From contig PLYL01000024.1 of NCBI GenBank assembly GCA_003151795.1, forward strand, positions 4,953 to 68,952: a DNA stretch of 64,000 nucleotides, read 5' to 3'. Under the pieces are notes generated by a model, which was not told where the DNA came from, did not search any database, and saw nothing but the letters and a program-made list of their open reading frames with translations. Both the position numbers and the translations under genes were made by a program. Positions 18,538 to 59,853 of this stretch are shown here, one piece after another. This DNA comes from Candidatus Yanofskybacteria bacterium (GTDB lineage: Bacteria > Patescibacteriota > Minisyncoccia > 2-02-FULL-40-12 > GWA2-44-9). The first letter of the stretch is position 1. Each line of letters begins with the position of its first letter.

Positions 18538-18623
18538 GGAGGAGTCGGATAGTGGTTTATTCCACCGCCTTGGAAAGGCGGCATCCCGCAAGGGATACGT
18601 GAGTTCGAATCTCACCTCCTCCG
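18538..18623 (+). tRNA. tRNA-Ser(GGA), type II, no encoded CCA
   Basis: Manual fold gives acceptor GGAGGAG/CTCCTCC, a 3-bp D stem, anticodon loop TTGGAAA, a long variable arm (ATCCC..GGGAT), T-arm GTGAG-TTCGAAT-CTCAC, and G73. Confidence 0.8.
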
Positions 18624-18629
18624 CAGTCA

Positions 18630-20167: not shown

Positions 20168-21949
20168 ATGTCAATTAATAAGTCTCAATTCATTACAGTA
20201 GCGGAGATGGCCAAAATGCTTGGTCTCACTCGGGCGGCTATAAATAAGCAAATTTCAGAGGGTAAAATACCTGCAGAGAAGGTTGGGCGTAACTACCTTA
20301 TTCCCAAATCAGCCCTTCCGGCTAATCTCCAAGAGCGTATCCGAAAGGGTCAGAAGGAAGCCACAAAAAACGTGATAGAAAAAAGCCACCACCATGATCT
20401 TGATTTTGAGAAAGAGCTTTGGGCGGCGGCTGATAAACTCCGAGGCAACATCGATGTTTCCGAATACAAGAACATCGTTCTTGGTCTTCTATTTTTAAAA
20501 TACATTTCAGACTCTTTCTATAAACGCCGCGAGGAACTCAAAACCCTCACGCTTGATCCAAAGAACGAAGATTTTTATGTAAAAGACGATAAAGCTAGGG
20601 CACACATCCTTGAAACCAAAGATTTTTACAAGAGTGCCGGCGTGTTCTACGTGCCTGAAAAGTCGCGCTGGGAGTATCTACAGACCAAAACGATGCATCC
20701 AGATATTGGACAGGTACTCGACAAAGCCATGGATCTCATTGAAGAAGATAATCGAGCTGAGCTTGAAGGTGTTCTTCCTAAAATTTATACCCGTACAACT
20801 CTCGACCATGCCGTCATTGGTGAACTCGTAAATATATTCTCGCGGATTTCGTTTGACCACGATTTTGATCGAGAGAAAGATATCCTTGGTCGTATTTATG
20901 AATACTTCCTTGGTCAATTTGCATCTTCCGAAGGTAAACGTGGTGGAGAATTTTTTACACCAAGATCAATTGTTAAACTTCTTGTCGAGATACTCGAGCC
21001 ATATGAAAACGCACGAGTGTTAGATCCTGCGTGTGGTAGCGGTGGAATGTTTGTATCTATAGGTGAATATCTTTTAAATCATGGACAAGACCCATCGAAA
21101 CTTGCCATCAATGGTCAGGAAAGTAATCAGACCACACTTCGTCTTGCGAAGATGAATCTTGCTATCCGTGGTCTCTCTGGAAAAATTGAGTTGGGTAATA
21201 CCTATTATCAAGATAAGTTTCCTAATCTTCAGGCAGATTTTGTAATCGCCAACCCTCCTTTCAACGCTGAGTGGGAACCATCAAAACTTGCTGATAATGA
21301 TCCCCGCATAACTCTCGGTACACCGCCAAGCGGTAGCGCGAATTTTATGTGGGTACAACACTTCGCCCACCACCTCGCCCCCACTGGCTATGCGGGATTT
21401 GTGATGCCAAATGGGGCCCTGGCCGTATCAGGGAAAGAAGGAGATATGCGCCAAAAGTTGATTGAGCAAGATCTGGTCGAGGTAATTATTTCCTGCCCCG
21501 GAAAGCTTTTCTATAACGTCTCACTCCCAGTATCTCTGTGGTTCTTAGCCAAAAATAAATCCGGCGACCGCTTCCGCAAACGCTCTGGCGAAACTCTTTT
21601 TATTGATGCTCGTGAAACGTTTGAACAGATTTCTCGTAAACAAGTTGTTTTTAACCCAAAACATATTGAAAAGATTGCGGGTACTGTTCGCGCATGGCGA
21701 GGAGAGTTAGGGGCTGATAAATACAAAGACATCTCCGGCTTCTGCAAATCAGCAACGTTGAAAGAAATACAGAAAAACAGTTACGTGCTTACGCCTGGTC
21801 GCTATGTTGGTTTGGCCGACATCGAGTACGATGGAATTTCATTTGAAGATAAGATGAAGAAACTATCTGGTGAACTTCGGGCTACATTTGTTAAGGGTCG
21901 GGAGTTGGAGAAAGAAATCGAGAAAAATCTTAAAGAATTAGGGTTCTAA
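20168..21949 (+). CDS. hsdM: Type I restriction-modification methyltransferase subunit HsdM with an N-terminal excisionase-like HTH extension
   Basis: HsdM_N-like segment (ELWAAADKLRGNIDVSEYKNIVLGLLFLKYISD), an AdoMet pocket, and the N6-adenine catalytic motif NPPF (VIANPPFNAEW). The first roughly 60 aa form an HTH_17/excisionase-like helix-turn-helix. Confidence 0.9.
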   Translation: MSINKSQFITVAEMAKMLGLTRAAINKQISEGKIPAEKVGRNYLIPKSALPANLQERIRKGQKEATKNVIEKSHHHDLDFEKELWAAADKLRGNIDVSEYKNIVLGLLFLKYISDSFYKRREELKTLTLDPKNEDFYVKDDKARAHILETKDFYKSAGVFYVPEKSRWEYLQTKTMHPDIGQVLDKAMDLIEEDNRAELEGVLPKIYTRTTLDHAVIGELVNIFSRISFDHDFDREKDILGRIYEYFLGQFASSEGKRGGEFFTPRSIVKLLVEILEPYENARVLDPACGSGGMFVSIGEYLLNHGQDPSKLAINGQESNQTTLRLAKMNLAIRGLSGKIELGNTYYQDKFPNLQADFVIANPPFNAEWEPSKLADNDPRITLGTPPSGSANFMWVQHFAHHLAPTGYAGFVMPNGALAVSGKEGDMRQKLIEQDLVEVIISCPGKLFYNVSLPVSLWFLAKNKSGDRFRKRSGETLFIDARETFEQISRKQVVFNPKHIEKIAGTVRAWRGELGADKYKDISGFCKSATLKEIQKNSYVLTPGRYVGLADIEYDGISFEDKMKKLSGELRATFVKGRELEKEIEKNLKELGF

Positions 21950-21951
21950 AT

Positions 21952-22800
21952 ATGAAAAAGAAGATAATAAAAAAACCTGTAGCTAAAAAAGTGGTATCCG
22001 CATCATCTTTGCAGAGCATACGTTTTTTGGCAGAGCAACTGGGTGAAATTATTCCGGCTACTTCAATGAATAAAACCGGTTTTTGTTTCACCACTCTCGC
22101 GAAAGAATACAAACTTAAAAAATACTGGGAGAATAAAGGTCAAAAGAAAGAATCAATTGCCAGTTTTCTTAAGCTGGTCTACAAAAAACATCCGAGGGTA
22201 TTAAAGAAACTCATCAGGGAAAACCTGTCACGAGCTATTGAGCGAAGACATAAAAACGGAAACCCGATTTTAAGACAAGAGGCGGATAATCTAAGCACAA
22301 CCTTATTTAAACTAAATATTGATTTAAAAAAGGAAATTGGAGAATTGGATTTACCGACTACCAGACCGAGCATAGTCCCTCCTAGAATCGAGATGCAAAA
22401 AGCACTTGGCGTGCTAAGTCTTCATCCTATGTTATTGCCAGACTGTAAGAAACTTTTTGACGACGGACACCTTAATGAATCGGTGAGAAAAGCTCTAGAA
22501 AAATATGAGGTCTATGTCAGAGATAGCTCGGGTTTAAGTCTTATGGGAACCAACCTTATGGAACAAGCTTTTAGTGAAAAGGGTTCTAAGATTTCAATAA
22601 GCAACGATCCTGATGTTAGGAGGAAGGAAGGTCTACAAACAGGATTCAAAGATATATCCCGCGGTGCAATGGAATATTGGAAGAACTATGCTTCTCATGG
22701 CGATGAAGAGCAAATGCCGGCACAGGATGCTATCGCGATACTCGGTGTCGTCAGTCATCTTTTGTATGTAGTGCAAAAAAGTAAAGAAACAACTATATGA
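21952..22800 (+). CDS. Hypothetical protein between hsdM and hsdS (TIGR02391-like; possible HEPN-type RNxxxH motif KNYASH)
   Basis: Lies between hsdM and hsdS: it starts 2 bp after the hsdM stop and overlaps hsdS by 4 bp. The C-terminal region resembles proteins found embedded in type I R-M loci. Confidence 0.4.
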   Translation: MKKKIIKKPVAKKVVSASSLQSIRFLAEQLGEIIPATSMNKTGFCFTTLAKEYKLKKYWENKGQKKESIASFLKLVYKKHPRVLKKLIRENLSRAIERRHKNGNPILRQEADNLSTTLFKLNIDLKKEIGELDLPTTRPSIVPPRIEMQKALGVLSLHPMLLPDCKKLFDDGHLNESVRKALEKYEVYVRDSSGLSLMGTNLMEQAFSEKGSKISISNDPDVRRKEGLQTGFKDISRGAMEYWKNYASHGDEEQMPAQDAIAILGVVSHLLYVVQKSKETTI

Positions 22801-24032
22801 GTAAATTATTAGAACAAATAAATATATCTGACAAAAAACTTTTTCAACTAAAAGATCTGTTTGATATTGGCCCACAGTATGGATATACAGAAAGTGCTAG
22901 TAAAGATAAGATTGGTCCTAGATTTTTAAGAATCACGGATATTCAAGGGAATATTGTTGATTGGGAAACAGTACCATATTGTAAAATACCCGAAAAAGAT
23001 AAAAGTAAATATCTTTTAAAAAAAGATGATCTTGTCTTCGCTCGTACTGGGGCGACGACAGGAATGAGTTACTTCATTGATTCAGATTTGAGTGAAGATG
23101 CTGTTTTTGCTTCTTATCTCATTCGTCTTCGTTTTAATAAAAAAATGTGTTCTCCCGAGTTGCTTAAATACTTTTTTCAGTCAAGAAATTATTGGGGCCA
23201 AGTCAATGGATCGCTATCAGGTAGCGCACAGCCTGGTATAAATGCAGTCACGCTTTCAGAAATGTATGTAAAGCTTCCTGTAGATCTACCAACCCAAAAG
23301 AAAATCGCGGAAATACTATCTGCCTATGATGCAAAAATTGAGAACAACAACAAAGAAATTAAATGGCTCGAGGAATTAGCTCAAATCACTTTCAATGAAT
23401 GGTTTGTAGCCTTTCGTTTTCCGGGTTGGGAGAAATTAAAAATGATTGATAGTGAGGTGGGGAAAATTCCGGAAGGGTGGAGCATGCAAATAGTATCAGG
23501 TGTTGCCAAAGTAATACTCGGGGGTACACCATCTCGAGAAAGGCCTGAATACTGGAGTGGTAACATCCCATGGATTAATTCTGGTGAAGTAAATAAACTT
23601 CGTGTTATCGATGCAACCGAATATATAACCGAGACTGGTTTAAAGAATTCTAATGCTCAGTTAATGAAGGCCGGGACTGTCTTAATAGCCATAACCGGAG
23701 CCACTCTTGGCCAAGTTAGCAGGCTGGAAATTGACTCAGCTGCCAATCAATCAGTTGTTGGAATATTTGATAAATCAGAAAAAATTAATGAGTTTCTATA
23801 TTTATTTATAAAGAAAAATATCCCCGACTTAATATTGGGTGCATCTGGTGGTGCACAGCAACACATAAACAAGCAGATGGTGAGTGAATACGGAATCCTT
23901 ATCCCCAATGAAAAGGTTCTTTCCGATTTTAGATCAAAGATATCTCCAATTTTCTTTCAAATTAGAAACTTAATTTTTGAGAACATGTCACTTCAAAAAT
24001 CAAGAGACCGCCTTCTTGAAAAACTCATATGA
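22797..24032 (+). CDS. hsdS: Type I R-M specificity subunit HsdS (two target-recognition domains)
   Basis: 411 aa at the hsdS position, with a duplicated target-recognition-domain structure and conserved central and C-terminal coiled-coil repeats. Confidence 0.85.
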   Translation: MSKLLEQINISDKKLFQLKDLFDIGPQYGYTESASKDKIGPRFLRITDIQGNIVDWETVPYCKIPEKDKSKYLLKKDDLVFARTGATTGMSYFIDSDLSEDAVFASYLIRLRFNKKMCSPELLKYFFQSRNYWGQVNGSLSGSAQPGINAVTLSEMYVKLPVDLPTQKKIAEILSAYDAKIENNNKEIKWLEELAQITFNEWFVAFRFPGWEKLKMIDSEVGKIPEGWSMQIVSGVAKVILGGTPSRERPEYWSGNIPWINSGEVNKLRVIDATEYITETGLKNSNAQLMKAGTVLIAITGATLGQVSRLEIDSAANQSVVGIFDKSEKINEFLYLFIKKNIPDLILGASGGAQQHINKQMVSEYGILIPNEKVLSDFRSKISPIFFQIRNLIFENMSLQKSRDRLLEKLI

Positions 24033-27000
24033 ATCCTCTAAACGAAAACAACCTTACCGAGCAATCTCTCATCGAATGGCTGAAAAGTCAGGGCTATGAG
24101 CATGCCAGGGGTCCGGAGATAAATCCTGGTCAACCAAACGCTGAGCGGGAGGATTTTCGTGGCGTTGTATTGAAAAATCGTCTTCTTGGGGCAGTCCGTC
24201 GATTAAACCCACAACTTCCGGCCCAACAAGCAGAACAGGTCGTCGATGATATCGCCGGCTATCACAATGCGGATCTCGTTCTTGGTAACAAGGAAATGTT
24301 TACTCTTATCACTGAAGGGGTTAAAAAAACTTGGCGTGAGCAAGGTGAAGAGAAAACAGAAGTCGTGAAACTGATTGATTTTACAAATACAGATGCGGAT
24401 GAATTTTTAATTGTGAACCAATTCACGGTTCAAGGCATAGACGATGTATGCCGTCTCGATGGTGTCTTATTTGTGAATGGTCTTCCGTTGATAGTTCTTG
24501 AACTAAAGAGTCCTGTTCATGGGCAAGCGACTATCGGTCAGGCATATCGGGATATAGAATATTATAAAAAAGAGATTCCAAAAATTTTCTTATACAATCA
24601 AATCGTGTGTTCAAGTGATCTTACTGAGGCTAGACATGGAACGATATCTTCTTCATGGGAACGATATGGCACATGGAAAGGTATTGAATCAGAAAACGAC
24701 ACACCTAAAGATACGGCGGAGCTTGAAGTACTCGTTAAAGGTCTTTTTAATAAAGCCCGACTACTTGATGTCATGCAGAATTTCACAATATTTGAGGCTG
24801 ATGGCGATGGTGATGCAGTGACATACACAAAAAAGATGGCTATGTACCACCAGTACTATGGAGTGAATAAAACAATTCAGAGTACTATCCGGGCAGTATC
24901 AGGAGTTCAAGATCGAAAGATTGGTGTTTTTTGGCACACACAGGGTTCTGGAAAGTCGCTCTCAATGGTTTTTTATGTGAACAAAACAAAAAGAATTCCC
25001 GAACTTAAAAGCCCTGCTTACGTATTTCTAACTGATCGAGAAGATCTAGATGATCAATTGTTTAAGACCTTCAGTCGAACTGGATATGGCACACTCGCTA
25101 AAAAGGCTTCAAGTATAAGAGATTTACGTACAAGATTGTCACATCTTGGTGGTGAGCTTATCTTCACAACCATCCAAAAATTTCAGGAAGATCCCGATGC
25201 CCACGAAGCATTAACAACTCGTGATAATATTATCGTTCTTTCTGATGAAGCTCATCGTACTCAATACAGCAATTTGGCAGGAAATGTTCGCCTGGCATTA
25301 CCAAACGCAAGTTTCTTGGGAGTAACCGGAACTCCTATAGCCCTCAACAACAAGGATACTGTTCGGGTTTTTGGTGAGGTCGTGAGTTCGTACAAAATCA
25401 GCCAATCGGTCAAAGACAAATCAACGGTACCCATTTATTATGAAGGACGACTTGTACCACTCCATCTTGCTGATAAGTTTATCGATAGTAAATTCGATGC
25501 AGTTTTGGGTGAGGTTGTTCCTGATGACTACTCACGGATGCGTAAAGAATGGGCAGTTCTCGAAGAAGTTATTGGGGCACCAAGCCGTGTCGAAAAAATC
25601 GCTGAGGATATTGTGAACCATTTTAATAATAGGCCGATTGAGGGCAAGGCTTTGATTGTGACCATGAGTCGCCGGATTGCGGTTGCGATGTATGAAGCAA
25701 TACAAAAAATACCAGGAGCGCCAGAGTGCGCGGTAGTGATTTCAAATAGTGATGAATATGCATCGTTAATTCAAAAAGAAACAGATGTTAAAAAACTTGA
25801 GAAACGATTTAAAAAAGTAAACGATCCGCTTAAAATTGCCATCGTCTGCGACATGTGGCTAACCGGTTTTGATGTGCCGTGTTTGCATACACTATATCTT
25901 GATAAGCCACTTAAAAATCATGGGCTCATGCAAGCCATTGCTCGGGTAAATCGAGTGTATAAAGATAAGCCGGGTGGTTTAGTCGTCGATTATATTGGTG
26001 TCGCCGAGAATCTTAAAAAAGCCCTGGCCTGGTATGATTCTGATATCCAACATGATGCACTTGTCCCCATCGATGAAGTTGTTGAACAGATGCACACTAT
26101 ACATTCAGAAGTAACCAAATTTTTTGGCGAGGTTAAATTTTCAGCATGGAAACAAAAAAGAGGAGTTGAATTGGCAAATCTCATGCGAGCTGGAGTGAAT
26201 GCCGTTATTACCCAAAATGGCTTTTTATCAGACGAGAAAAAGATGAAGTATATAGGGATGGTTTCTAAACTTTCAAAATTACATGCCCTGGTCATGCCTG
26301 GAGAACAAGCAATGAACTTATTGTCTAATGTTCAGTTTTTCCAAGCTGTACGTGAGTTCATAAGAAAACAAACAGTGATACCTCATGCGATATTTCCAGA
26401 GGAAACAGAGAGTGCTATTCGTAGCTTAATGCACGATTCAATTCAAGCTGAAGAAATCGTCGATCTATTTAATGTTGAAGGTGAAGAAAGAAAAAGCATT
26501 TCTATTTTCGACGAAAAATTTGTTGCTGAAATTAAGAAATCACATTATCAAAATTTTGCGATTGATTCGATTCGCAAACTTCTTGATCGAGAGATACATG
26601 CTCGCATGCGCATTAATACAGCTCGTTATGAAACCATGCTCAATCTTTTAGAAGGACTTATTGAAAAATACGAAAACAATGTTATTAGTTCTGCTGAAAT
26701 CATAAAGCAGTTACTTGAAATTGCTGATGAAATTAAGAAACTAGATCAAGGAAGTAAAGATACGGGTCTTTCTTATGATGAGCTAGTTTTTTACGATACT
26801 TTGGCGAGTGATCCAGAACTCAAGAAAGCTGGCATTGATATTAAAAAGTTTGTAAAAGATCTCACGAAACGTATTCGTCGAGATCTTGCCATAGACTGGA
26901 CAAACAACGAAACTATAAAAGCCCGTATTCGTCAAAATGTACGGTTACTCTTGCTTCAAAAAGGATTTGTGGAACAAATTCAAACAGAGCGGCTGATAGA

Positions 27001-27052
27001 ATCTATATATCTGGAGACCGTGAGAGTGTACCGTGAGTATTTACCTGCATAA
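24029..27052 (+). CDS. hsdR: Type I restriction enzyme R subunit HsdR (SF2 helicase plus N-terminal nuclease)
   Basis: 1007 aa with a Walker A (TQGSGKS), a DEAH box (VLSDEAHRTQ), an N-terminal PD-(D/E)xK region, and 4-bp overlap with hsdS. Confidence 0.9.
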   Translation: MNPLNENNLTEQSLIEWLKSQGYEHARGPEINPGQPNAEREDFRGVVLKNRLLGAVRRLNPQLPAQQAEQVVDDIAGYHNADLVLGNKEMFTLITEGVKKTWREQGEEKTEVVKLIDFTNTDADEFLIVNQFTVQGIDDVCRLDGVLFVNGLPLIVLELKSPVHGQATIGQAYRDIEYYKKEIPKIFLYNQIVCSSDLTEARHGTISSSWERYGTWKGIESENDTPKDTAELEVLVKGLFNKARLLDVMQNFTIFEADGDGDAVTYTKKMAMYHQYYGVNKTIQSTIRAVSGVQDRKIGVFWHTQGSGKSLSMVFYVNKTKRIPELKSPAYVFLTDREDLDDQLFKTFSRTGYGTLAKKASSIRDLRTRLSHLGGELIFTTIQKFQEDPDAHEALTTRDNIIVLSDEAHRTQYSNLAGNVRLALPNASFLGVTGTPIALNNKDTVRVFGEVVSSYKISQSVKDKSTVPIYYEGRLVPLHLADKFIDSKFDAVLGEVVPDDYSRMRKEWAVLEEVIGAPSRVEKIAEDIVNHFNNRPIEGKALIVTMSRRIAVAMYEAIQKIPGAPECAVVISNSDEYASLIQKETDVKKLEKRFKKVNDPLKIAIVCDMWLTGFDVPCLHTLYLDKPLKNHGLMQAIARVNRVYKDKPGGLVVDYIGVAENLKKALAWYDSDIQHDALVPIDEVVEQMHTIHSEVTKFFGEVKFSAWKQKRGVELANLMRAGVNAVITQNGFLSDEKKMKYIGMVSKLSKLHALVMPGEQAMNLLSNVQFFQAVREFIRKQTVIPHAIFPEETESAIRSLMHDSIQAEEIVDLFNVEGEERKSISIFDEKFVAEIKKSHYQNFAIDSIRKLLDREIHARMRINTARYETMLNLLEGLIEKYENNVISSAEIIKQLLEIADEIKKLDQGSKDTGLSYDELVFYDTLASDPELKKAGIDIKKFVKDLTKRIRRDLAIDWTNNETIKARIRQNVRLLLLQKGFVEQIQTERLIESIYLETVRVYREYLPA

Positions 27053-29000
27053 AATTATGACTACTGCACAACAACTAACAGCTATCAACTTAAGATATGG
27101 AACCGTAGCAAAGTCTTTGAAGACCCTTGCTTTTAGTGACCTTTCTGCAAAGGCATTATATTTACTAGGAAAGCCTGCCCGGTTAGATGAGGTAAGTAAG
27201 TCGGTCGCTCAAATAATTGGCGTACGCTCCTTATCAAATGATTTAGTACTTAAAGGACTTCAGGAATTAAAGAATGACCGAAAGGCAATGGTATCGAAAG
27301 ATCTTTGGGAGCTTCTTGAACAGACAAGTAAGGATATCAAAAAACAGATTGAATCTTTGGAGACGTCTCTCTTGTCTGTATTGAAGAGGAATTTTCCGGC
27401 GGATATTGAATTAAATCTTCTAACCAACTGGTTTATTGATGTCATATCCGATTTCTTCATCTATAACGGAGATGAATGGGTTCAGTCTATATGTAAAGGA
27501 TCAAGTAATTTTACAAAATTAAAAACTTTTGATGAGCTTCTGGAACCATCCATCAAAAAACATAAACTAACCCTACATATTAATGAACTAAAAAATTCTT
27601 TTAGTGGTTTCCTGAATAGCTCTAACAAAGACGATCAGTTTTATATTGTGAATATTGGCTATGCAATGTTTTCAGCTAGATTGGTTGCAGCCGATGTTGG
27701 AGCAGACCCTATTGCTTTGGAGGAGCTTCAAAATGCTAGTTTCTTTTTAGACACGAACTTTTTCTATGCTTTACAATTAGAAAAGAATCGGCTTGCCACA
27801 TCACTAGAAGCACTAGGCGAAGCTCTCAAAGAGATTGGTGCTAAATTATTTTTTATTCACGAAACCGAAGAAGAATATAAGCGTGTTTGGTCTGGAAGGA
27901 GATTAGAAGTACTGAGACTACTTGATATCTATCCCAACGATGTGGTTTCTGCCGCTGATGATAGTTTTGTTTCTACGGCTCTAGCTCGTGGTTGTTTAAA
28001 TAAATCTGATTTCGAAGTATTCTTTGATTCAGTACAGCAATTACCTCAAAAAATGGTTGAGGGACTCCCTATTACTAAAATTGATGACAAGGAGGTAAAT
28101 AAAATTGTCCTAAAAGCAAAACAAGACGGAGGATTAAAAGATTTCGTTCAGAGATGGTCTCTTAAAATGAGGCCACTTTGGAATAGACATCCAAAATCTA
28201 ACGCTGCTTTAGGGCACGATGCTTCTTTGATTATGGTCGTTGAGAGTGAAAGACAAATCGAAAAGAAGACTTTTATTCTCACACTAGATCGAAGCTTGCA
28301 AGCCTGTTGCGCAGAAAGAGCAGGTAATCATAATCTTCCAGTAGCTATTTATCTTGAAGGACTTATACAAATCCTTGCAGCAAATAACGCTGGCCCCGGT
28401 ATTGATGCTTCAAATTTCGCACCATTACTAACGAGCATAATCCTAAAGAGGTGTATCCCTCCAGAGCAAATGTATAGTCTTCAAGACTTACACTGGTTAT
28501 ATGGAATCCAGAAAAATGTTGCAAAGTTTAAGCCAAGTAAAATTAAACAAATTGCTCTTGAAGTAACAAGAGCGCGTCTTTCTGGTAAGACCGCCACCGA
28601 CGATGCCCTTCAAAGGATTGTGAATCGTTTGTATCAGGAAGAAATACAGTCTACCTCCAGAGAGGTATCTGAGGCCATGGCTAGAGCGCAATCGGCCGAA
28701 CAGGACGCTCTTAGGGAAAAGACTTTGCGTAAACAAGCAGACTCTAAATTACAAATGTATGAAAGAAAAAATAATTTACGGATTGCAAAATTTAAACTCA
28801 TTAAAACTTTGGCTTGGCGCACTCCGGTTAGCTTGGCTATAGGGTACCTTGGCTTTTATTTAGCGTCTATATCAGTTAACCAAAGTAGCCCGTTGGACAT
28901 AGTGTTGGGACTCGTAGCTTTTTTGGGGGCTTCGTATGCTATCCTGTCAAAACCAATAAAAGCGTACATGGTTGTTCGTGGAGAAAATCGGTCCTCCTAG
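27033..29000 (+). CDS. Large hypothetical protein translationally coupled to hsdR; PIN-like motif plus a C-terminal coiled coil and two transmembrane helices
   Basis: Overlaps the hsdR stop by 20 bp. A central FFLDTNFF segment resembles the PIN-domain first strand and is followed by acidic positions. A C-terminal hydrophobic pair (LAIGYLGFYLASI...LGLVAFLGASYAIL) is present. No confident family assignment. Confidence 0.35.
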   Translation: MSIYLHKIMTTAQQLTAINLRYGTVAKSLKTLAFSDLSAKALYLLGKPARLDEVSKSVAQIIGVRSLSNDLVLKGLQELKNDRKAMVSKDLWELLEQTSKDIKKQIESLETSLLSVLKRNFPADIELNLLTNWFIDVISDFFIYNGDEWVQSICKGSSNFTKLKTFDELLEPSIKKHKLTLHINELKNSFSGFLNSSNKDDQFYIVNIGYAMFSARLVAADVGADPIALEELQNASFFLDTNFFYALQLEKNRLATSLEALGEALKEIGAKLFFIHETEEEYKRVWSGRRLEVLRLLDIYPNDVVSAADDSFVSTALARGCLNKSDFEVFFDSVQQLPQKMVEGLPITKIDDKEVNKIVLKAKQDGGLKDFVQRWSLKMRPLWNRHPKSNAALGHDASLIMVVESERQIEKKTFILTLDRSLQACCAERAGNHNLPVAIYLEGLIQILAANNAGPGIDASNFAPLLTSIILKRCIPPEQMYSLQDLHWLYGIQKNVAKFKPSKIKQIALEVTRARLSGKTATDDALQRIVNRLYQEEIQSTSREVSEAMARAQSAEQDALREKTLRKQADSKLQMYERKNNLRIAKFKLIKTLAWRTPVSLAIGYLGFYLASISVNQSSPLDIVLGLVAFLGASYAILSKPIKAYMVVRGENRSS

Positions 29001-29054
29001 TGGGCATCTTGTCTTACATATTTCCAAACTCAATCTTAGGTAATAAAAAATTAA

Positions 29055-29807
29055 ATGTCTAAATACTACAATCCCAATCGTAAGAGAAATATGTACGAAC
29101 CGAGCTCGAAGGAGCCGTTTCGGCTTAGTCGCTCAAAGATAGATTTATTTTTGAATTGCCCGCGGTGTTTCTATATGGATAGACGACTTGGGGTCGGACA
29201 GCCACCAGGATATCCGTTCAGTCTCAATTCTGCGGTAGATAAGCTTTTAAAGAAGGAGTTTGATATGCACCGAGCCAAAGGGACAGCCCATCCTCTGATG
29301 AAGGCTTATGGCCTTGAGGCAGTGCCTTTTGCACATGATAAAATTGACGAATGGCGGGACTCTTTGCGACGTGGTATTACATATCATGATGTAGTCACTA
29401 ATCTACTCATCACTGGCGGTGTAGACGATGTCTGGGTTGATCTACAGGGCAAGCTGATGATTGTAGACTATAAGGCAACTTCAAAAGAAGCCGAGGTCAC
29501 CCTAGATGCCGACTGGCAGATTGGCTATAAGCGTCAGATGGAAGTATACCAATGGCTATTCAGAAAGAACGGCTTTAAAGTTTCCAGTACCGGCTACTTT
29601 GTATATTGTAATGGGATAACAGACAAAAAAGCTTTTGATGCCAAACTGGAATTTGATGTTAAGGTTATTCCTTATACTGGCGATGATTCATGGGTGGAAG
29701 GCACTATTCTTGGAATTAAAAAATGCCTTGATGGTGCAATGCCAGACTCAAATCCAGAGTGTGATTTTTGCAGTTATCGAAAAGCGGTAAGCGAGGTAGA
29801 TAAATAA
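29055..29807 (+). CDS. Cas4-like PD-(D/E)xK nuclease with four-Cys cluster (no CRISPR context)
   Basis: N-terminal CPRC plus C-terminal CDFC (the Cas4/AddB-type 4-Cys arrangement) and a PD-(D/E)xK core (VDDVWVDL...IVDYK). Confidence 0.55.
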   Translation: MSKYYNPNRKRNMYEPSSKEPFRLSRSKIDLFLNCPRCFYMDRRLGVGQPPGYPFSLNSAVDKLLKKEFDMHRAKGTAHPLMKAYGLEAVPFAHDKIDEWRDSLRRGITYHDVVTNLLITGGVDDVWVDLQGKLMIVDYKATSKEAEVTLDADWQIGYKRQMEVYQWLFRKNGFKVSSTGYFVYCNGITDKKAFDAKLEFDVKVIPYTGDDSWVEGTILGIKKCLDGAMPDSNPECDFCSYRKAVSEVDK

Positions 29808-29814
29808 TAAATTT

Positions 29815-30186
29815 ATGGCAAACAAATATGGCATACCAAATAAGGTGGAAAAAAAGATACGCAAAAGAGACATGCCGTATTGTGTTTATTGTCATAAGAG
29901 AATGACTATCCCTAAAAGAGGTGGCTCAAGGAGGAACTGGGCAACAATAGAACATCTTAATGAAAGAGGTCCAGATTTTTGGGATGAAAAGTGGAATGGA
30001 ATAAGACTGAACGAAAACAATTTGGCAATTTGTTGTTTTAGCTGTAATGCTAGCAGAGGTCAGCTAAACTTGTATAAATGGTTCACATCTTCTTATTGCA
30101 TGGATAGAAAGGTAAAGATAGGTAAAAATACCGTCGCATCTCCAGTAAAAAAGTTTCTTCGAAAATATATTTATAGTAAGCAATGA
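29815..30186 (+). CDS. HNH endonuclease
   Basis: CxxC...H...N...CxxC arrangement (CVYCHK ... IEHLNERG ... CCFSCNASRG); 123 aa. Confidence 0.6.
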   Translation: MANKYGIPNKVEKKIRKRDMPYCVYCHKRMTIPKRGGSRRNWATIEHLNERGPDFWDEKWNGIRLNENNLAICCFSCNASRGQLNLYKWFTSSYCMDRKVKIGKNTVASPVKKFLRKYIYSKQ

Positions 30187-31400
30187 TTTATAAACATCAA
30201 TATTTCAAGCTAGATACGGAGAAGAAAAAGCTCTTTGACCACCACGGAGAAGAGACATTTATTTCCGGCACCTCTAAGGTTTTTAAGTTACTGGAATATT
30301 TATGCGAAAGTTATCCTGCTAGCGTTACCATAACCAACATAAACGATCATGTCGATCCATTACAAAGCGATGTAGAGATCAGAGAGGATAATGTTCGTAA
30401 TATGCGTAATGAGATAAGAAAAGCACTCCGCCAAGATTTAATTAAATATGAAAATCACGTCTATTCTATAATCGGTCGGGTAGAGAAATTTGAAAAAGAG
30501 CCAGAGAATAAAGACCTCCCAGTTCAGGGGAAAACAGAAATTATTTCTAGACGAATCAACAAGCGCGTATTATTAGTAACCGTTGCCATCGTCTTACTAG
30601 TTATTGGTGTATTAATTTTTATTCAATATAAAAAGGGGGCTTTTTCTCTGAAGCCAGTGAATGACATGGTTTTAATTCCGGCTGGCAAGTTTCTAATGGG
30701 AAGCACCGATGCGCAGATAACTCAAGGATACAATTTATGCCAAGAACAAAACCAGTGTTCCCTGCAAGACTACCAATCAGAATATCCTCAACATGAAGTA
30801 TCGTTACCTAATTTTTATATTGATCGGAAGGAAGTATCAAATGCTGACTATGCTCTTTTTATGAAAGCGAAAAAAGTAGCCGCGCCTCAATATTGGAATG
30901 ATTCAGACCTTAATAGTGCCAATCAACCAGTAGTTGGAGTTAATTGGAATGATGCTACAAATTATTGTCAGTGGCTCAGTGAACGATTACCGACTGAAGC
31001 CGAATGGGAGAAAACGGCCAGAGGAACTGATGGCAGGATATGGCCATGGGGAAACACTTGGGATGGCTCAAAACTTAATCATGGTAAGGGTGGAATGCCT
31101 GGATTGGATGCTAGTGATGGCTATTTATATACCGCTCCTGTGGGGGCTGATTTGGGCGTAAGCCCCTACGGAGTCCTAGATATGGCCGGCAATGTTGATG
31201 AATGGGTTTTTGATACTTTTAATCCATATCCGGGTAACGACAAATATGCCAACTCTCAGTATAATAAAGGTCTTAAGATTGTCCGAGGTGGGTCATATGA
31301 GGAAGATTCAAGTATCCAAAGAAGTGCCAGTAGAACAGTATGGCAACCTAGTAATAATGACGAAGCCACTGGTTTTCGTTGTGCGAAAGACGCGAAGTAA
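30183..31400 (+). CDS. Membrane-anchored CadC/OmpR-type winged-helix regulator fused to an FGE-sulfatase (SUMF1/EgtB-like) domain
   Basis: N-terminal trans_reg_C-like wHTH pattern, one transmembrane helix (LLVTVAIVLLVIGVLIFI), and a C-terminal FGE-sulfatase domain (NVDEWVFD, RGGSYEED, GFRCAKD). Confidence 0.6.
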   Translation: MIYKHQYFKLDTEKKKLFDHHGEETFISGTSKVFKLLEYLCESYPASVTITNINDHVDPLQSDVEIREDNVRNMRNEIRKALRQDLIKYENHVYSIIGRVEKFEKEPENKDLPVQGKTEIISRRINKRVLLVTVAIVLLVIGVLIFIQYKKGAFSLKPVNDMVLIPAGKFLMGSTDAQITQGYNLCQEQNQCSLQDYQSEYPQHEVSLPNFYIDRKEVSNADYALFMKAKKVAAPQYWNDSDLNSANQPVVGVNWNDATNYCQWLSERLPTEAEWEKTARGTDGRIWPWGNTWDGSKLNHGKGGMPGLDASDGYLYTAPVGADLGVSPYGVLDMAGNVDEWVFDTFNPYPGNDKYANSQYNKGLKIVRGGSYEEDSSIQRSASRTVWQPSNNDEATGFRCAKDAK

Positions 31401-31421: not shown

Positions 31422-31456
31422 CCGCCGAACTTCGGGTGAAGTTCGGCGGTTTTGTT
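31422..31456 (+). terminator. Intrinsic terminator
   Basis: 12-bp perfect stem (ccgccgaacttc / gaagttcggcgg) with a 4-nt loop, followed by ttttgtt. Confidence 0.65.
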
Positions 31457-31533: not shown

Positions 31534-31797
31534 ATGATAATAATCATAGCTTACAAATTAAATAACCCCAGCAAAGACTATATGCCCCTTTATACCTCAA
31601 TTAAGTCGCTTGCTTCTAACTGGTGGCGCTCATTCGACTCGCTTTGGTTAATTCATACCAATCTTAGCCCGATCGAAATAAAGGAATCGCTAGTATCTAA
31701 CCTAGATTCAAAAGACGAGATTATAGTGGCGCGAGTGGATGGAGAAATCACCGGCTACATATCTGCTGAATTACATGATTGGCTTAAAAATAATTAA
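31534..31797 (+). CDS. Hypothetical small protein
   Basis: 87-aa ORF; weak support. Confidence 0.25.
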   Translation: MIIIIAYKLNNPSKDYMPLYTSIKSLASNWWRSFDSLWLIHTNLSPIEIKESLVSNLDSKDEIIVARVDGEITGYISAELHDWLKNN

Positions 31798-32056
31798 TTT
31801 AAATCAAATGCCAGCCAGAATAATAAAATCGTTGCCAATGCCGGAAAGAGGATATCATCACAGAGAACATAGGTCTCGGAAAAGTAAAAAAGGACAGAAT
31901 ACTAAGCGTAAAAGAGAGGACCGACTTAAAAAGCTTATGGCTAAAGAACTACGGGATAAGGAATTTCTAAAAAGATTTCGACGGAAAAGGGCAATGTTAG
32001 TAAATAACTATACCAACAGCGAGATTCTTACAACAAATATAAATCAACTAATATGA
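31739..32056 (+). CDS. Small highly basic (Lys/Arg-rich) protein; start uncertain
   Basis: The frame overlaps the GHKL gene start by 4 bp. The sequence HHREHRSRKSKKGQNTKRKREDRLKK suggests nucleic-acid binding. Confidence 0.3.
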   Translation: MEKSPATYLLNYMIGLKIINLNQMPARIIKSLPMPERGYHHREHRSRKSKKGQNTKRKREDRLKKLMAKELRDKEFLKRFRRKRAMLVNNYTNSEILTTNINQLI

Positions 32057-33555
32057 CAAAAATAAAAGAACAATTTCATCCTGGTATAAAATATGCGCTA
32101 TCTTCTAATTTTAGAAATTGGAAAGAAGCAATACTCGAACTTCTTGATAACGCTGTCTCCGATCGTATTATGGGAGTCCCTCTTCAAGTTTCAGTTCTTA
32201 TTGGTCCCGAATTAATTGAAATTGAGAATTTAGGAGGAGTAGCGATGAATCCGGAGAAGATGGGCCAAATGTTTTCATGGGGCGAGCAGAAGGATCGACA
32301 GGCATGGGATATCGGTGCCTATGGGCAAGGGGGTAAGGCAGCCATGACTTACCTAGGAAATGAGATGGAAATCATTTCTTCTCCTCGGTTGGATGACGTT
32401 GAGTATTCTATCAAGGACGCCAACTTGCATGATATCTCCCAACTTAAGGAATATGACGTCCAAGAACGTAATGCTAAAAATTACGACCAAGGCTATGTCA
32501 GAATTTCATTACGTCAATTACGTCGTAGGGTTAAGGGAGAAGAAGTTGAAGATATTGTCTGTGAGTATTATAGACCACTTATAGAGAGAAAAGAAATCCA
32601 AGTTACAGTCAATGGAAAAGATATTAAGCTTAAGAATTTTCCGTTAGACCCGGAATTTAATCCTCAGTCATTTGAAATCAAAACCGTGCGTGATGATGGG
32701 AGAAAGATAGAAGTTAGGGGCTGGATCGGTCGATTGCAATCACGAAGCGGATTACGTGGTGGTTTTAGGGTATATAAACTTGGTCGGTTAATTACATCAC
32801 AGGAATACTTTGGCAAACCAGATGCTAACTACAAACAGTCGTTGAATCTTCTTTTTGGTGAAGTCCATCTTGATTATGTAACCGTAACAACAAATAAAAC
32901 CAGCTTTGATCAGGGTTCGATAGGATGGCAGTCGGCACTTACTGCTATTAGTCCTATTCTTGATCCTTATATCAACGATCTCCTTGGCCGTGATATCAAA
33001 GAACCTACAGACGAAGAAAAAGATAAGGTCGAACAAACACGTCAGATATTAGCTGAGATTATGAAACAACGCGACATGCAATTAAAGGGTATAAGCGGGG
33101 CTCCAGATTCAACTGGTCAGAAACCACCAGTACGCAATGAGGATCCTACTCCTCGGGTCCATAATAATCATACGGACCGTAAGAATGAACCACGAACACC
33201 GCCCCCGGCTGGTGCGATTGGAAAACGTCGCCGTCTTAATGAATTTATTGACATGGAACCACGAGCAATTGATGAGAATGTTCGAAGCGTCGTAGAAGTA
33301 ATCAATGATGGTAAGAAAAAGTTAGTCATCAATAATCAATTTCCTGGATATAAAGCTAATAAGGATAACGATAAGGCCAACGGTTTCTATTTACTCGAGA
33401 CTGCCGCATTGCAGCTCTGTAAAATTGATGGCGATAATAAATTAACTGCCAGTGAATTTATTATTCAGTTCGATGAATTGTTAGCATATTGTTGTGAAAA
33501 CTTTGAATTAGCAAAGGATGCTATTAAAAAGAGAAATGCCACTAGAAAGAAGTAA
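32053..33555 (+). CDS. GHKL-superfamily ATPase (HATPase_c_3 / MORC-Hsp90-like Bergerat fold) protein
   Basis: N-box ELLDNAVSD, G1-like ENLGGVAMNPEKM, and G2 box IGAYGQGGKAAMTYLG. 500 aa with a low-complexity basic linker and a C-terminal domain of unknown function. Confidence 0.55.
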   Translation: MTKIKEQFHPGIKYALSSNFRNWKEAILELLDNAVSDRIMGVPLQVSVLIGPELIEIENLGGVAMNPEKMGQMFSWGEQKDRQAWDIGAYGQGGKAAMTYLGNEMEIISSPRLDDVEYSIKDANLHDISQLKEYDVQERNAKNYDQGYVRISLRQLRRRVKGEEVEDIVCEYYRPLIERKEIQVTVNGKDIKLKNFPLDPEFNPQSFEIKTVRDDGRKIEVRGWIGRLQSRSGLRGGFRVYKLGRLITSQEYFGKPDANYKQSLNLLFGEVHLDYVTVTTNKTSFDQGSIGWQSALTAISPILDPYINDLLGRDIKEPTDEEKDKVEQTRQILAEIMKQRDMQLKGISGAPDSTGQKPPVRNEDPTPRVHNNHTDRKNEPRTPPPAGAIGKRRRLNEFIDMEPRAIDENVRSVVEVINDGKKKLVINNQFPGYKANKDNDKANGFYLLETAALQLCKIDGDNKLTASEFIIQFDELLAYCCENFELAKDAIKKRNATRKK

Positions 33556-34723
33556 ATTTATTGACCAATATTATATCAGTAATAAAAACATGAAAATAAC
33601 CTCAGACGATATTAAAAATCCAATGGACTTCACAAAGATTAAGAAGTTCAAAAAACCATTAAAGATTTTGGCCATAATAGCCGGCGTGCTTGTTGGCTTT
33701 TATATATCCTTGATAATTATCGGCCTTACCGCCTCCGGCGTCAGCGATTTTTGGAGTAGCATCTATTGGTCGTCATATTTCTGCGGACCGAAGAATATCT
33801 CCGATGCCGCAAACGGTGTTGTGAAAATAACCATGAGTGATGGTAGTAGCGGAAGCGGTTTCTGGATAGCTCAAGATCTAGTTCTTACTAATAACCATGT
33901 CATAAGTTTTGAGAATGGTATTCAGGTTATTGATGATGAAGGTACTACGTATGATGCAGTAGCGGTTCAGACAGACACAATAAAGGACTTGGCTATTTTA
34001 AAGATATCCGCGCTCGATGTGCCCGATCATGAACATTACATTATCCCAATGCGCTCTCGTTGGCCGGTTCTTGCTGAAAACGTCTATACGCTCGGTTTTC
34101 CCGGAGATAGCAAAACCATAGTCACAACAAAAGGTATTGTATCTGCTCTGACCCACACTCCCATTGAAGATACAAAAATAATTCAAACCGACGCCGCTAT
34201 AAATCCCGGTAATTCAGGTGGGCCGTTGGTTGATGTATGCGGTCGAATGGTTGGTATTAATTCTTCAACTGCCACGGGTTCTGAAAATGTCGGATATTCA
34301 ATTGAGACGGTCCGTATCAGTGATACGATCGGTAATATGATTTCTCTAGGCGAGAATATCACCAGTGCCCGGTTGGCTAGCGGTCAGACTGGCGATACAG
34401 CTGAAATCGTCGCGAAATACTACGACGCTTTAAACCAAGGAAATTTTGAAACCGCCTATGATTTCTATTCCCCAACCCTTAAATCTAGAACTCCCTTTAA
34501 TGGTTGGAAGAAAAATTACGACAACAGTTCTATTATTAAAGTTAAGTCTGCCGTGGAAACATCACCAACTCAGGTCGAAGTGGTTGTTGTGACTATTGAT
34601 AACCCGGACGGAGATTCTACCACGAAAGAGTTTAAGGGTACCTGGTCGTTGGTTAATGAAAATGGGGTCTTAAAATTGAACCAATCAAATATCAGCGAAA
34701 TCCCGGTTGAGAATTTTAATTAA
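33518..34723 (+). CDS. Membrane-anchored trypsin-like (S1, HtrA/DegP-type without PDZ) serine protease with an NTF2-like C-terminal domain
   Basis: N-terminal transmembrane anchor, catalytic Ser motif GNSGGPLVD, a His region LTNNHVI, and an Asp near DLAILK. Overlaps the GHKL gene by 38 bp. Confidence 0.7.
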   Translation: MLLKREMPLERSKFIDQYYISNKNMKITSDDIKNPMDFTKIKKFKKPLKILAIIAGVLVGFYISLIIIGLTASGVSDFWSSIYWSSYFCGPKNISDAANGVVKITMSDGSSGSGFWIAQDLVLTNNHVISFENGIQVIDDEGTTYDAVAVQTDTIKDLAILKISALDVPDHEHYIIPMRSRWPVLAENVYTLGFPGDSKTIVTTKGIVSALTHTPIEDTKIIQTDAAINPGNSGGPLVDVCGRMVGINSSTATGSENVGYSIETVRISDTIGNMISLGENITSARLASGQTGDTAEIVAKYYDALNQGNFETAYDFYSPTLKSRTPFNGWKKNYDNSSIIKVKSAVETSPTQVEVVVVTIDNPDGDSTTKEFKGTWSLVNENGVLKLNQSNISEIPVENFN

Positions 34724-35068: not shown

Positions 35069-35139
35069 GCCTTTGTAGCTCATCGATAGAGCACTCCTCT
35101 GAAAAGGGAGAGAAGAAGGTTCAACTCCTTCCAAAGGCA
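35069..35139 (+). tRNA. tRNA-Phe(GAA), no encoded CCA
   Basis: Acceptor GCCTTTG/CAAAGGC, D-arm GCTC..GAGC, anticodon loop CTGAAAA, T-arm GAAGG-TTCAACT-CCTTC, and A73. Confidence 0.75.
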
Positions 35140-35142
35140 CAC

Positions 35143-35215
35143 GCCCTCGTAGCTTAATGGATAAAGTACCTCTGTTCTAATGAGGAAGATGTGGGTTCAA
35201 GTCCTGCCGAGGGCA
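35143..35215 (+). tRNA. tRNA-Arg(TCT) (slightly irregular; possibly degenerate)
   Basis: Acceptor GCCCTCG/CGAGGGC, anticodon loop GTTCTAA, and a T-loop TTCAAGT. It has a U-U at the 31-39 pair and two wobbles in the T stem. Confidence 0.55.
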
Positions 35216-35225
35216 CAAAAAGATT

Positions 35226-38717: not shown

Positions 38718-39093
38718 GCAGTTTTTCCGTGTCTGGCTTCAATTTCCCAAAGAGTTCAACATAAAGGTTATTGTCCTCATCTTGAGCAATGGTCAGCGCG
38801 GACTGGAAAACCTTTTGCTTGTAATCCGAATGTTTATTTTTCAGCCAAAAAATTATGGCCGTGAGGTTGCCGTTTTTGATTGCGGTCAACAACTGCGATT
38901 CCGAGATGTCATTTACTAGTGCCTCTCCTTCAGTCAATGCTTGGTCGGCCGCTTTTCGGAATTCGACATCCTCTGACTTCCATCGGTAAAAGGTCATGCG
39001 GGATATCTCGGCCTTCTGACACGCCGCTTCAATAATCGGCGATTTTCGTAGCTGGTCTAAAATAATCTGCTTGATTCGGTCTACTTTTTTCAT
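38680..39093 (-). CDS. HTH protein, likely terminase small subunit
   Basis: 137 aa directly upstream of and overlapping terL, with an N-terminal HTH (EAACQKAEISRMTFYRWK). Confidence 0.5.
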   Translation of the reverse strand: MKKVDRIKQIILDQLRKSPIIEAACQKAEISRMTFYRWKSEDVEFRKAADQALTEGEALVNDISESQLLTAIKNGNLTAIIFWLKNKHSDYKQKVFQSALTIAQDEDNNLYVELFGKLKPDTEKLLEPDTSNEHEQP

Positions 39094-41103: not shown

Positions 41104-41219
41104 ATGTTTTTATTAATGAGGGCCGTGTTTTAACCCTTCCCTCACTCTTTAGGGTTCGAGAATGGCAAAACGGGACATCAAAAAGCCCCGAGCGGGGCTT
41201 TAAACTTTGAGTCTAAAGT

Positions 41220-59619: not shown

Positions 59620-59853
59620 ATGGATAAGATAATTCCAACAAACGAACATCCGCGAAATCGTTTCAAACGACTCGCTACTGCTCGGACAAATATAGTTCTA
59701 AAACGTCTTAAAGTTTTAGGGAATTGTTCTAACCGTAATATATACGAATACGAGGAACAGGACATTGATAAGATTTTCTCCGAGATAGAACGCAAGGTTA
59801 AGGAAACCAAGGCAAAATTCCACTTCCCCAAAAAGCGTGAGTTTAAACTATGA
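59620..59853 (+). CDS. Small basic hypothetical protein (possible regulator)
   Basis: 77 aa; overlaps the start of the downstream GHKL gene by 4 bp. Confidence 0.35.
   Translation: MDKIIPTNEHPRNRFKRLATARTNIVLKRLKVLGNCSNRNIYEYEEQDIDKIFSEIERKVKETKAKFHFPKKREFKL

Follow-up and report, generated by a model that had tools for sequence, protein, structure and literature searches.

A predicted membrane-tethered PIN-like protein encoded directly after a type I restriction–modification cluster in a Candidatus Yanofskybacteria genome

The window analysed here is a 64,000-nucleotide stretch of DNA from a Candidatus Yanofskybacteria bacterium (Patescibacteriota; assembly GCA_003151795.1, contig PLYL01000024.1, positions 4,953 to 68,952 of the forward strand). 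It carries the three genes of a type I restriction–modification (R-M) system, the last of which, hsdR, is followed directly by the gene under study. This gene lies at 27057..29000 on the + strand (stop codon included; coordinates are counted from the first letter of the window) and encodes a protein of 647 amino acids (aa), identical to the database protein P0001. An AlphaFold2 (AF2) model built from an alignment of 42 sequences (mean predicted local distance difference test score, pLDDT, 83) shows, in order, a winged helix, a helical region, a PIN-like core, a further helical region, a charged helix and a two-helix membrane hairpin. The protein may thus be a nuclease held at the membrane, and its gene appears to be a stand-alone passenger of R-M-rich islands.

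A sequence-only reading of this stretch had described the gene as a 655-aa open reading frame (ORF) which starts 20 bp inside the end of hsdR and is translationally coupled to it. The open frame, uninterrupted on the + strand across 27033..29000, is real, and gives 655 aa if read from the GTG at 27033, but that start is probably wrong. The product of the in-frame ATG at 27057 is identical to P0001, the N-termini of 41 homologues line up with it (MTTAQQL...), and the eight residues added by the GTG (VSIYLHKI) have a counterpart in no homologue. The context of ATG 27057 is A/T-rich and without a Shine–Dalgarno motif, like that of most genes in the window, and the GTG was rejected on these grounds. 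Across the whole window most well-supported genes lack a Shine–Dalgarno motif and start after A/T-rich sequence, an observation which bears on start-codon choice throughout. The overlap with hsdR probably arose only because the frame was extended to the first upstream GTG: the hsdR stop codon (TAA) occupies 27050-27052 and the ATG sits 4 nt beyond it. Without a genuine 20-bp overlap, the case for translational coupling to hsdR no longer stands. A 4-nt gap nevertheless fits co-transcription and allows termination–reinitiation, and co-transcription of the gene with hsdR is likely. The motif on which the PIN assignment first rested, ASFFLDTNFFYAL, is present at residues 226-238 in the 647-aa numbering and is followed by conserved acidic positions.

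The PIN-like core, which includes extra helices, covers residues 222-448 (27720..28400, +) and is supported by the AF2 model, conservation, Pfam, hhalign and Foldseek. Five parallel strands are predicted (228-231, 263-267, 338-342, 405-409 and 430-432), and four putative catalytic acidic residues are arranged around them. The first belongs to the motif D232-T233-N234 (27750..27758, +) at the end of strand 1. It is followed by E273 in the sequence ETEEEY (27873..27875, +), by D388 in the pair H387-D388 (28215..28220, +; invariant in alignments A3 and A4), where the helix before strand 4 begins, and by D411 in the sequence LTLDRS (28287..28289, +; invariant in alignment A1) after strand 4. Conservation was judged chiefly from alignment A3, which holds 136 sequences down to ~20% identity. 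In it D232, T233, H387 and D388 are the only invariant residues of the whole protein, whilst N234, E273, Y274 and D411 are conserved in at least 90% of sequences. The position of D411 is occupied by glutamate in two sampled distant members (LSKEIS and LSQELS). The acidic residues follow one another as in canonical PIN domains, at the end of strand 1, where the helix after strand 2 begins, at the start of the helix preceding strand 4 and just past strand 4, and the family thus has the three to four conserved acidic residues, in that order, by which the PIN superfamily is recognized.

Profile and structure comparisons point in the same direction. A Pfam scan of 75 distant members found PIN_3 to be the commonest of 24,736 families (24 of the 75 at E≤1, best E 3.5e-5), with PIN (6), PIN_8 (4) and PIN_12 (4) also represented. 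When the extra helices (residues 293-377) were deleted from nine members, a PIN family became the top match in seven and one of the remaining two also had a PIN match; the alignments lie mostly at profile positions 2-64, with one covering the C-terminal half of PIN_4. Comparison of the family core by hhalign with a Shigella-type VapC alignment, whose VapC sequence was confirmed to be identical to PDB 3tnd_A, gave a score of 24.8 (P 0.0014) and paired D232 with VapC D7 and E273 with E42. None of 150 column-shuffled templates reached this score (mean 12.5, standard deviation 2.6). Position and residue pattern suggest that D388 is the counterpart of VapC D98. A model of the domain on its own (residues 216-472; pLDDT 86, predicted template-modelling score 0.85) has a five-stranded alpha/beta core. 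PIN proteins make up about a third of its top 42 fold matches in the PDB (AF1683/1w8i, PAE0151/2fe1, HARP, the Rrp44 PIN domain, Utp24 and XPG), and its two best matches in a viral structure library are annotated 'PIN like domain' (probability 0.98, E 4.9e-3) and 'PIN domain-containing protein' (probability 0.93).

Several results weigh against this assignment. The gathering scores of the curated Pfam families PIN, PIN_3, PIN_4, PIN_8 and PIN_12 are not reached: the protein itself scores 12.8 bits on PIN_12 at full length and 16.6 bits with the insert removed, against a cut-off of 32, and the best individually scanned insert-deleted core of a relative reaches 24.8 bits on PIN_3, for which the cut-off is 27. 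The hhalign probability is 12-17%, with the N-terminal half only aligned. None of the Foldseek comparisons, of the whole chain or domain model with the PDB or of the domain model with the viral library, gave a match at E≤1e-3, and Rossmann-like proteins (cyclodipeptide synthase, TyrRS) are also found among the fold matches. There are thus five convergent lines of evidence, each of which falls below formal significance when taken alone. In the whole-chain Foldseek search of the PDB there were weak winged-helix and VapC/HARP hints only. Profiles derived from alignments A1 and A3 found no PIN structure among PDB sequences; the matches they did return (VAMP2, AopB and BRIL fusions) are compositional and fall in the charged helix and transmembrane (TM) region.

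On balance the central domain very probably has a PIN-like fold, as the sequence-only reading had suggested while naming the failure to predict such a fold as grounds for abandoning the idea; such a fold is the one to which the sub-threshold matches point. The near-invariance of the acidic tetrad points to the core being an active enzyme, and RNA is favoured as its substrate since the nearest families all belong to the VapC-like group.

The N-terminal ~230 residues, previously set down as uncharacterised, are not featureless. A winged helix-turn-helix (wHTH) domain is recognizable at about residues 20-87 (27114..27317, +) from the AF2 model (helices 19-37, 43-54 and 61-73 and a beta hairpin at 77-86, pLDDT ~90), from Foldseek (IclR/PcaR/MarR-type regulators at probabilities of 0.93-0.98, but E>0.1) and from Pfam, where MCM4_WHD matches 12 of the 75 distant members (best E 3.8e-4) and the winged-helix families ANAPC2 (E 2.2e-6) and TBPIP match one distant member each. 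Binding of DNA or RNA by this domain is probable. It is followed by long helices which extend to about residue 215; this helical region (residues 88-221; 27318..27719, +) contains the conserved, family-specific residues F113, W125 and F134 and has no family or fold match. Taken together with the conserved K32 of the winged helix, the modelled N-terminal module is the obvious candidate for a sensor or for an inhibitor acting in cis.

Beyond the core, further helices reach about residue 510. The region concerned (residues 449-515; 28401..28601, +) has no family match and retains conserved C466, P468, D477, L478 and R507. It leads into a long charged helix or stalk (residues 516-588; 28602..28820, +), which in the AF2 model is part of one continuous helix, 516-607, running straight into the first TM helix. 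The stalk is 36% charged. The sequence-only reading had placed a coiled coil here, and this is not borne out: the heptad signal is weak, with a hydrophobic fraction of 0.38 at a/d positions compared with 0.23 elsewhere, and the term charged stalk helix was adopted instead. The two C-terminal TM helices proposed in the same reading are upheld by Kyte–Doolittle hydropathy, on which the description of membrane topology depends. They lie at residues 589-607 (28821..28877, +; hydropathy 1.43, six K/R in the preceding 19 residues) and 613-631 (28893..28949, +; hydropathy 1.97, three K/R following), within a chain whose final predicted helix spans 612-646. These ~19-residue hydrophobic helices with positive-inside flanks are a feature of the family: at a threshold of 1.4, two hydrophobic segments are found in 107 of 133 full-length relatives and at least one in all 133. 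The Pfam family DUF2207_C matches the hairpin region in 16 of the 75 relatives, and sequence conservation there is low, as expected for an anchor. Two hydrophobic segments joined by a five-residue loop and flanked on both sides by K/R-rich sequence imply a hairpin with both ends inside, which would leave the rest of the protein, including the putative nuclease, in the cytoplasm.

The protein is a real member of a conserved family of ~650 residues, far beyond chance. A word-indexed search returned 46 homologues of 37-78% identity, most of them 640-680 aa long and, where named, called 'hypothetical protein'. When 1.84 billion cluster representatives were searched exhaustively with a profile, 888 matched at E≤1e-3 and 287 of these at E≤1e-30; among the matches listed, most are 640-690 aa and align end to end, and the shorter ones look like fragments. 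Pfam, NCBIfam, PADLOC and PHROG scans of the full-length protein gave no significant match. A scan of 185,579 species-representative genomes, which detects close relatives only, yielded six loci, all in metagenome-assembled genomes (MAGs), from Patescibacteria (2), WWE3, Acidobacteriota, Planctomycetales and Aminicenantes.

The gene belongs to a co-directional cluster of eight genes which runs on the + strand from hsdM to a gene for an FGE-sulfatase-domain protein (20168-31400), with intergenic gaps of -4 to +54 nt. It is preceded by hsdM (20168-21949; Pfam N6_Mtase and HsdM_N), hsdS (22797-24032) and hsdR (24029-27052), and all three type I subunits are complete. The identification of the upstream neighbour as HsdR, made at the outset, is secure (Pfam HSDR_N, SWI2_SNF2, T1R_D3-like and T1RH-like_C; PADLOC REase_I, E 4e-246). 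Searches for homology of the protein itself to HsdR, HsdM or HsdS gave no R-M family match. Between hsdM and hsdS lies a gene for a 282-aa Ymh/TIGR02391 protein (PF09509; 21952-22800), a second accessory gene embedded in the type I operon, which has a weak PADLOC match to PD-Lambda-3_B (E 1.9e-4). Downstream follow a Cas4-like PD-(D/E)XK nuclease gene (29055-29807), a gene for a small HNH-like protein with sub-threshold PtuB and Endonuclease VII matches (29815-30186) and the FGE-sulfatase-domain gene (30183-31400; 405 aa, with the domain C-terminal and the N-terminal 158 residues unassigned). These three genes could be a further defence module. The sole strong + strand terminator-like hairpin stands at the cluster end (31422-31449) and no terminator-like site is present in the 4-nt gap between hsdR and the gene, in keeping with the earlier claim that the gene and the type I system form one unit.

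The cluster is contained in a low-GC segment of ~16.5 kb. GC content is 0.37-0.43 across 20-34 kb, compared with 0.47-0.51 upstream (10-18 kb) and 0.44-0.49 downstream. On the left the island is bounded by a tRNA-Ser gene (18538-18624, +) and a large serine recombinase gene (18726-20051, -), and on the other side by tRNA-Phe/tRNA-Arg (35069-35216). No convincing direct repeats (attachment sites) were found flanking the island at tRNA-Ser. Serine recombinases leave no long repeats, and their lack here is compatible with such an enzyme. Just past the terminator, and still within the island, a 500-aa protein with a weak GHKL ATPase (HATPase_c_3) match is encoded in an overlap of 38 nt with a 401-aa trypsin-like protease (32053-34723, +); upstream of this pair are an 87-aa phrog_1090 gene (31534-31797) and a 105-aa ORF (31739-32056). 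A second island-like stretch (36951-43927, -) contains an N6_N4 DNA methylase gene (39823-41103), a large serine recombinase gene (42395-43927) and several ORFs without a Pfam match (36951-38717 and 41220-42074). Further on, beyond dnaG and rpoD (46609-49759), lies what may be one more variable or defence region. Its genes for a Schlafen AlbA_2-domain protein and for a kinase of the zeta-toxin family (50365-51090 and 63045-63767, +) stand amid many small unannotated ORFs at 52-58 kb, together with an unannotated 785-aa ORF (59850-62207).

The genomic company of relatives was examined at 22 distinct loci, drawn from MAGs and metagenomic contigs, some of them short, and restricted to closer relatives. 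Nine of them have R-M or DNA methyltransferase genes no more than 3 kb from the homologue. Type I genes are found at four: upstream in the window, upstream at L007 (identical to L035), where the homologue comes directly after hsdS and a cyclic-oligonucleotide-based anti-phage signalling system (CBASS) lies downstream, downstream at L011, and on both sides at L025 (72-4542). In the last case the homologue begins 9 nt beyond the 3' end of hsdM and is followed by a gene for a 373-aa protein without a Pfam match and then by hsdS. At the other five loci the neighbours are a type III Mod/Res pair upstream (L005), a phospholipase D (PLD)-helicase and an Eco57I/TaqI_C methylase upstream (L030 and L036) and orphan N6_N4 methylases (L019 and L017). 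The pair at L030 (470-7610) and L036 (151-6608) is the same, a PLD-nuclease/SNF2-type helicase of ~1060 aa and an Eco57I/TaqI_C methyltransferase of ~1078 aa, and looks like a helicase-dependent R-M variant; at L030 it is followed by a GIY-YIG/RAMA protein. A tenth locus (L006) has an Mrr gene. Defence-like genes found elsewhere encode a 1507-aa superfamily 1 helicase–restriction endonuclease with an AAA_13 ATPase (L012), CHAT proteases (L003) and, at L013, a Cas4-like PD-(D/E)XK nuclease of the kind encoded downstream of the gene in the window. Large serine recombinases lie within 10 kb of the homologues at seven loci, the window and six others, and tyrosine integrases are present at three.

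R-M genes occupy about 1% of a genome, and nine loci of 22 represent a very strong enrichment when judged, as here, against that general figure rather than a matched background. The expectation that homologues would be tied to R-M or defence loci is therefore supported, whilst a tie to hsdR or type I systems in particular is not, as the R-M neighbours are of several types and about half of the loci have none. The immediate neighbours in seven loci are mutually unrelated, and in an all-against-all BLAST comparison of the neighbours at 21 loci only R-M subunits, recombinases and integrases recur. Neither comparison revealed a conserved partner gene, and a two-gene system was rejected because no partner recurs across loci. 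Nor is there a conserved small antitoxin gene directly upstream, as in VapBC modules; the upstream genes differ at every locus. Since no neighbouring gene is conserved across loci, the gene is a stand-alone module, found beside R-M systems of several unrelated types and not HsdR in particular.

These observations lead us to favour an autonomous membrane-tethered PIN nuclease which is accessory cargo of R-M-rich, recombinase-mobilised islands and is here co-transcribed with a type I R-M system, a reading on which our confidence is evenly divided. Since its relatives often lie beside R-M genes on mobile islands, the gene is probably an extra immunity or addiction gene. What the data show directly are the architecture, the conserved acidic tetrad, the membrane hairpin, the place in the operon and the enrichment of R-M and recombinase genes near relatives; we infer that the protein is a nuclease, what it would cut, what would set it off, how it would be kept latent and that it would serve defence. 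The C-terminal hairpin and charged stalk would keep the protein anchored on the cytoplasmic side of the membrane, whilst the winged helix and adjoining helical region would bind nucleic acid or the trigger, most plausibly infection or invading DNA, and hold the enzyme latent in cis. That latency should be built into the protein is suggested by the fact that no antitoxin gene is present. Once triggered, a Mg2+-dependent site formed by D232, E273, D388 and D411 of the VapC-like core would cleave RNA; cutting of nucleic acid as it enters at the membrane is a less likely alternative. The outcome would be growth arrest backing up restriction, a second line of defence resembling abortive infection.

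There are several points which weigh against this account. The context sample is small (22 loci, short contigs included), about half of its loci have no defence genes, and four (L001, L008, L009 and L010) are plain housekeeping neighbourhoods. None of the families of PADLOC-DB v2.0 (2023 library) matches the protein at E≤0.01, and PHROG contains no match. No relatives were found on viral contigs, GenBank phages or PLSDB plasmids, and a phage- or plasmid-borne origin is for the same reason not supported.

One may also consider a more specialised version, albeit a rather unlikely one, in which the family represents a previously unrecognised single-gene immune system of mostly uncultivated bacteria (the candidate phyla radiation/Patescibacteria, Acidobacteriota, Planctomycetota and others), with the nuclease at the inner membrane face providing a 'gatekeeper' layer that complements the cytosolic restriction enzymes. 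Nucleic acid would then be attacked on entry through the envelope, or the enzyme would be switched on by perturbation of the membrane or envelope during phage injection, with the wHTH domain reading the invader and the stalk passing the signal.

The PrrC paradigm, which corresponds to the anti-anti-restriction role raised in the sequence-only reading, is the main rival to an autonomous nuclease. In published accounts (PMC2610378, PMC3458546), the linked type I enzyme keeps the nuclease PrrC latent until a phage anti-restriction peptide activates it; a guard of this kind would be silenced by the upstream type I complex and freed when a phage anti-restriction factor disables it. The direct junction with hsdR in one operon and the positions of the homologues at L025, between hsdM and hsdS, and at L007, right after hsdS, are what such a guard would lead one to expect. 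The paradigm is weakened, however, by facultative linkage to differing R-M types. Where prrC is described as always R-M-linked (PMC3458546), the linkage here extends to nine loci of 22 and about half have no R-M gene at all. The systems concerned (type I of two families, type III, PLD-helicase/Eco57I-like and orphan N6_N4) are unrelated, which makes a single shared interface implausible, and one would hardly expect a cytosolic complex that translocates DNA to be paired with a protein tethered to the membrane. We therefore consider a PrrC-like guard improbable. Stabilisation of the serine-recombinase island by a fused toxin–antitoxin-like protein, with the wHTH domain as antitoxin or autoregulator and the PIN domain as toxin, is also quite unlikely in our estimation. 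VapB antitoxins are DNA-binding proteins, and the core has its nearest Pfam neighbours, PIN_3 and PIN, among the VapC-type toxins. The gene is accompanied by large serine recombinases or integrases in about ten loci, and at L011 a SocA/Panacea antitoxin-type gene is found ~1.3 kb upstream, with one gene between. Toxin–antitoxin-like PIN genes have moreover been noted to cluster with R-M genes 'to stabilise' islands (PMC5499597). Such an addiction module would nevertheless lack a separate labile antitoxin gene, the fused protein offers no obvious mechanism for differential stability, and the membrane tether is left unexplained; sequence alone cannot separate this model from a defensive one, and many toxin–antitoxin systems also defend.

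Two further alternatives depart from a toxic or defensive nuclease altogether. If the core were another three-layer alpha/beta fold with a chance DTN motif and an unrelated activity, it would be understandable that every PIN match stays below the curated or significance threshold, that hhalign covers the N-terminal half only, and that the top PDB Foldseek match is a cyclodipeptide synthase (E 0.012), with TyrRS and transaldolase also seen. This we regard as distinctly improbable, given that the sub-threshold matches fall overwhelmingly within one clan out of all the Pfam families scanned, with motifs in register at profile positions 2-64, that shuffled controls never match the observed hhalign score, that the two best viral-library fold matches are annotated PIN proteins, and that four invariant or near-invariant acidic residues keep a PIN-like order and PIN-like secondary-structure positions. 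The protein might instead be a housekeeping or regulatory membrane RNase, or a membrane-tethered transcription factor with a non-catalytic PIN-like sensor, to which its N-terminal wHTH domain, the ordinary metabolic or translation neighbourhoods at L001, L008, L009, L010 and L023 and the existence of TM-containing PIN proteins of unknown function such as PIN.COG4956 (PMC5499597) lend some colour. We give it little credence. The spread is extremely patchy, unlike that of a housekeeping gene, with the six loci of the close-relative scan distributed over five unrelated phyla, the gene sits in a low-GC island beside a recombinase, R-M genes are enriched nearby, and the strictly conserved acidic tetrad speaks for catalysis; the architecture of COG4956, with N-terminal TM helices and a TRAM domain, also differs from C-terminal TM helices without TRAM.

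If an autonomous membrane-tethered nuclease is indeed encoded here, it would offer a tractable one-gene model for the latency of a toxic nuclease without an antitoxin, would show what membrane tethering adds to immunity, and would provide a new marker for defence islands in candidate-phyla genomes. If it turns out to be no more than an addiction toxin or a housekeeping RNase, what is gained is a corrected annotation and a domain definition. In either case the architecture is named in no curated library and is shared by at least several hundred sequence clusters, largely from lineages whose defence biology is unexplored.

Among known proteins the closest resemblance is to the VapC-type PIN toxins (PIN_3, PF13470; PIN, PF01850; Shigella VapC, PDB 3tnd), which provide the best, though sub-threshold, Pfam and hhalign matches of the family. 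The DTN motif at the end of strand 1 is shared, as are the order and positions of the four acidic residues and the predicted five-stranded alpha/beta core. VapC is, however, a soluble protein of ~130 aa with an upstream VapB antitoxin gene, whereas the protein described here has 647 aa and no conserved partner. Unlike VapC, its PIN core spans ~225 aa, with extra helices between strands 2 and 3 and between strands 3 and 4, and it adds the wHTH domain, the stalk, the membrane hairpin and a family-specific invariant histidine before the third aspartate. Independence from an antitoxin has a precedent in DS-3 (WP_022645725.1), a validated one-gene PIN defence protein of E. coli in which a large insert divides the PIN domain and the catalytic D7 and E42 are required for defence (DefensePredictor, PMC13092281). 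Both are single genes with no cognate antitoxin and a PIN core interrupted by a helical insert, and similar motifs of the IIDTN...LTLDKGF type are found in each. DS-3 differs in its length of 340 aa, in having PIN halves at both ends and in its lack of wHTH or membrane helices. Specific kinship to DS-3 or DS-5 was rejected, as only the DTN motif aligns (14 columns in hhalign for DS-3); the relationship is one of superfamily only.

Accessory nucleases riding with restriction systems are a recurring theme of bacterial immunity, represented by PrrC, PIN-type toxins and DS-3. PrrC and RloC are likewise accessory latent nucleases in or next to a type I operon, and the placement of the L025 homologue recalls that of prrC between the prr genes (PMC2610378, PMC3458546). 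PrrC is a soluble protein with an ABC-ATPase N-domain and an unrelated anticodon nuclease (ACNase) domain, and is described as always R-M-linked. The present family has instead a PIN-like core, appears to be membrane-tethered and is R-M-linked in under half of its loci, by several R-M types; neither an ATPase nor an ACNase family was matched in Pfam, NCBIfam or PADLOC, and in place of the obligate type I linkage of PrrC, type I genes accompany four of the 22 loci and any R-M or methyltransferase gene nine. In this facultative linkage the family resembles RloC.

A survey by Matelska et al. (2017; PMC5499597) described toxins of PIN-like type whose genes are coupled in transcription to those of type I R-M systems, sometimes without an antitoxin. 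As in our case, these stand in operons with HsdM, HsdS and HsdR, in arrangements which are not conserved between relatives. Unlike our protein, they are short PIN proteins of toxin–antitoxin type from catalogued families, and whereas no PIN genes were reported there beside R-M systems without a specificity subunit, the present family is also found by type III, Eco57I-like and orphan methylases. The same survey lists PIN.COG4956, in which a PIN domain of unknown function is likewise fused to TM helices. Its order is four N-terminal TM helices, PIN and a TRAM RNA-binding domain, compared with a C-terminal two-helix hairpin after the PIN-like core and a wHTH domain in place of TRAM here, and no sequence match between the two was detected. 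No description of a wHTH–PIN–stalk–hairpin protein was found in the papers searched on PIN classification and defence systems. The architecture is new and unannotated, whilst an accessory PIN nuclease in a defence island is of a familiar kind.

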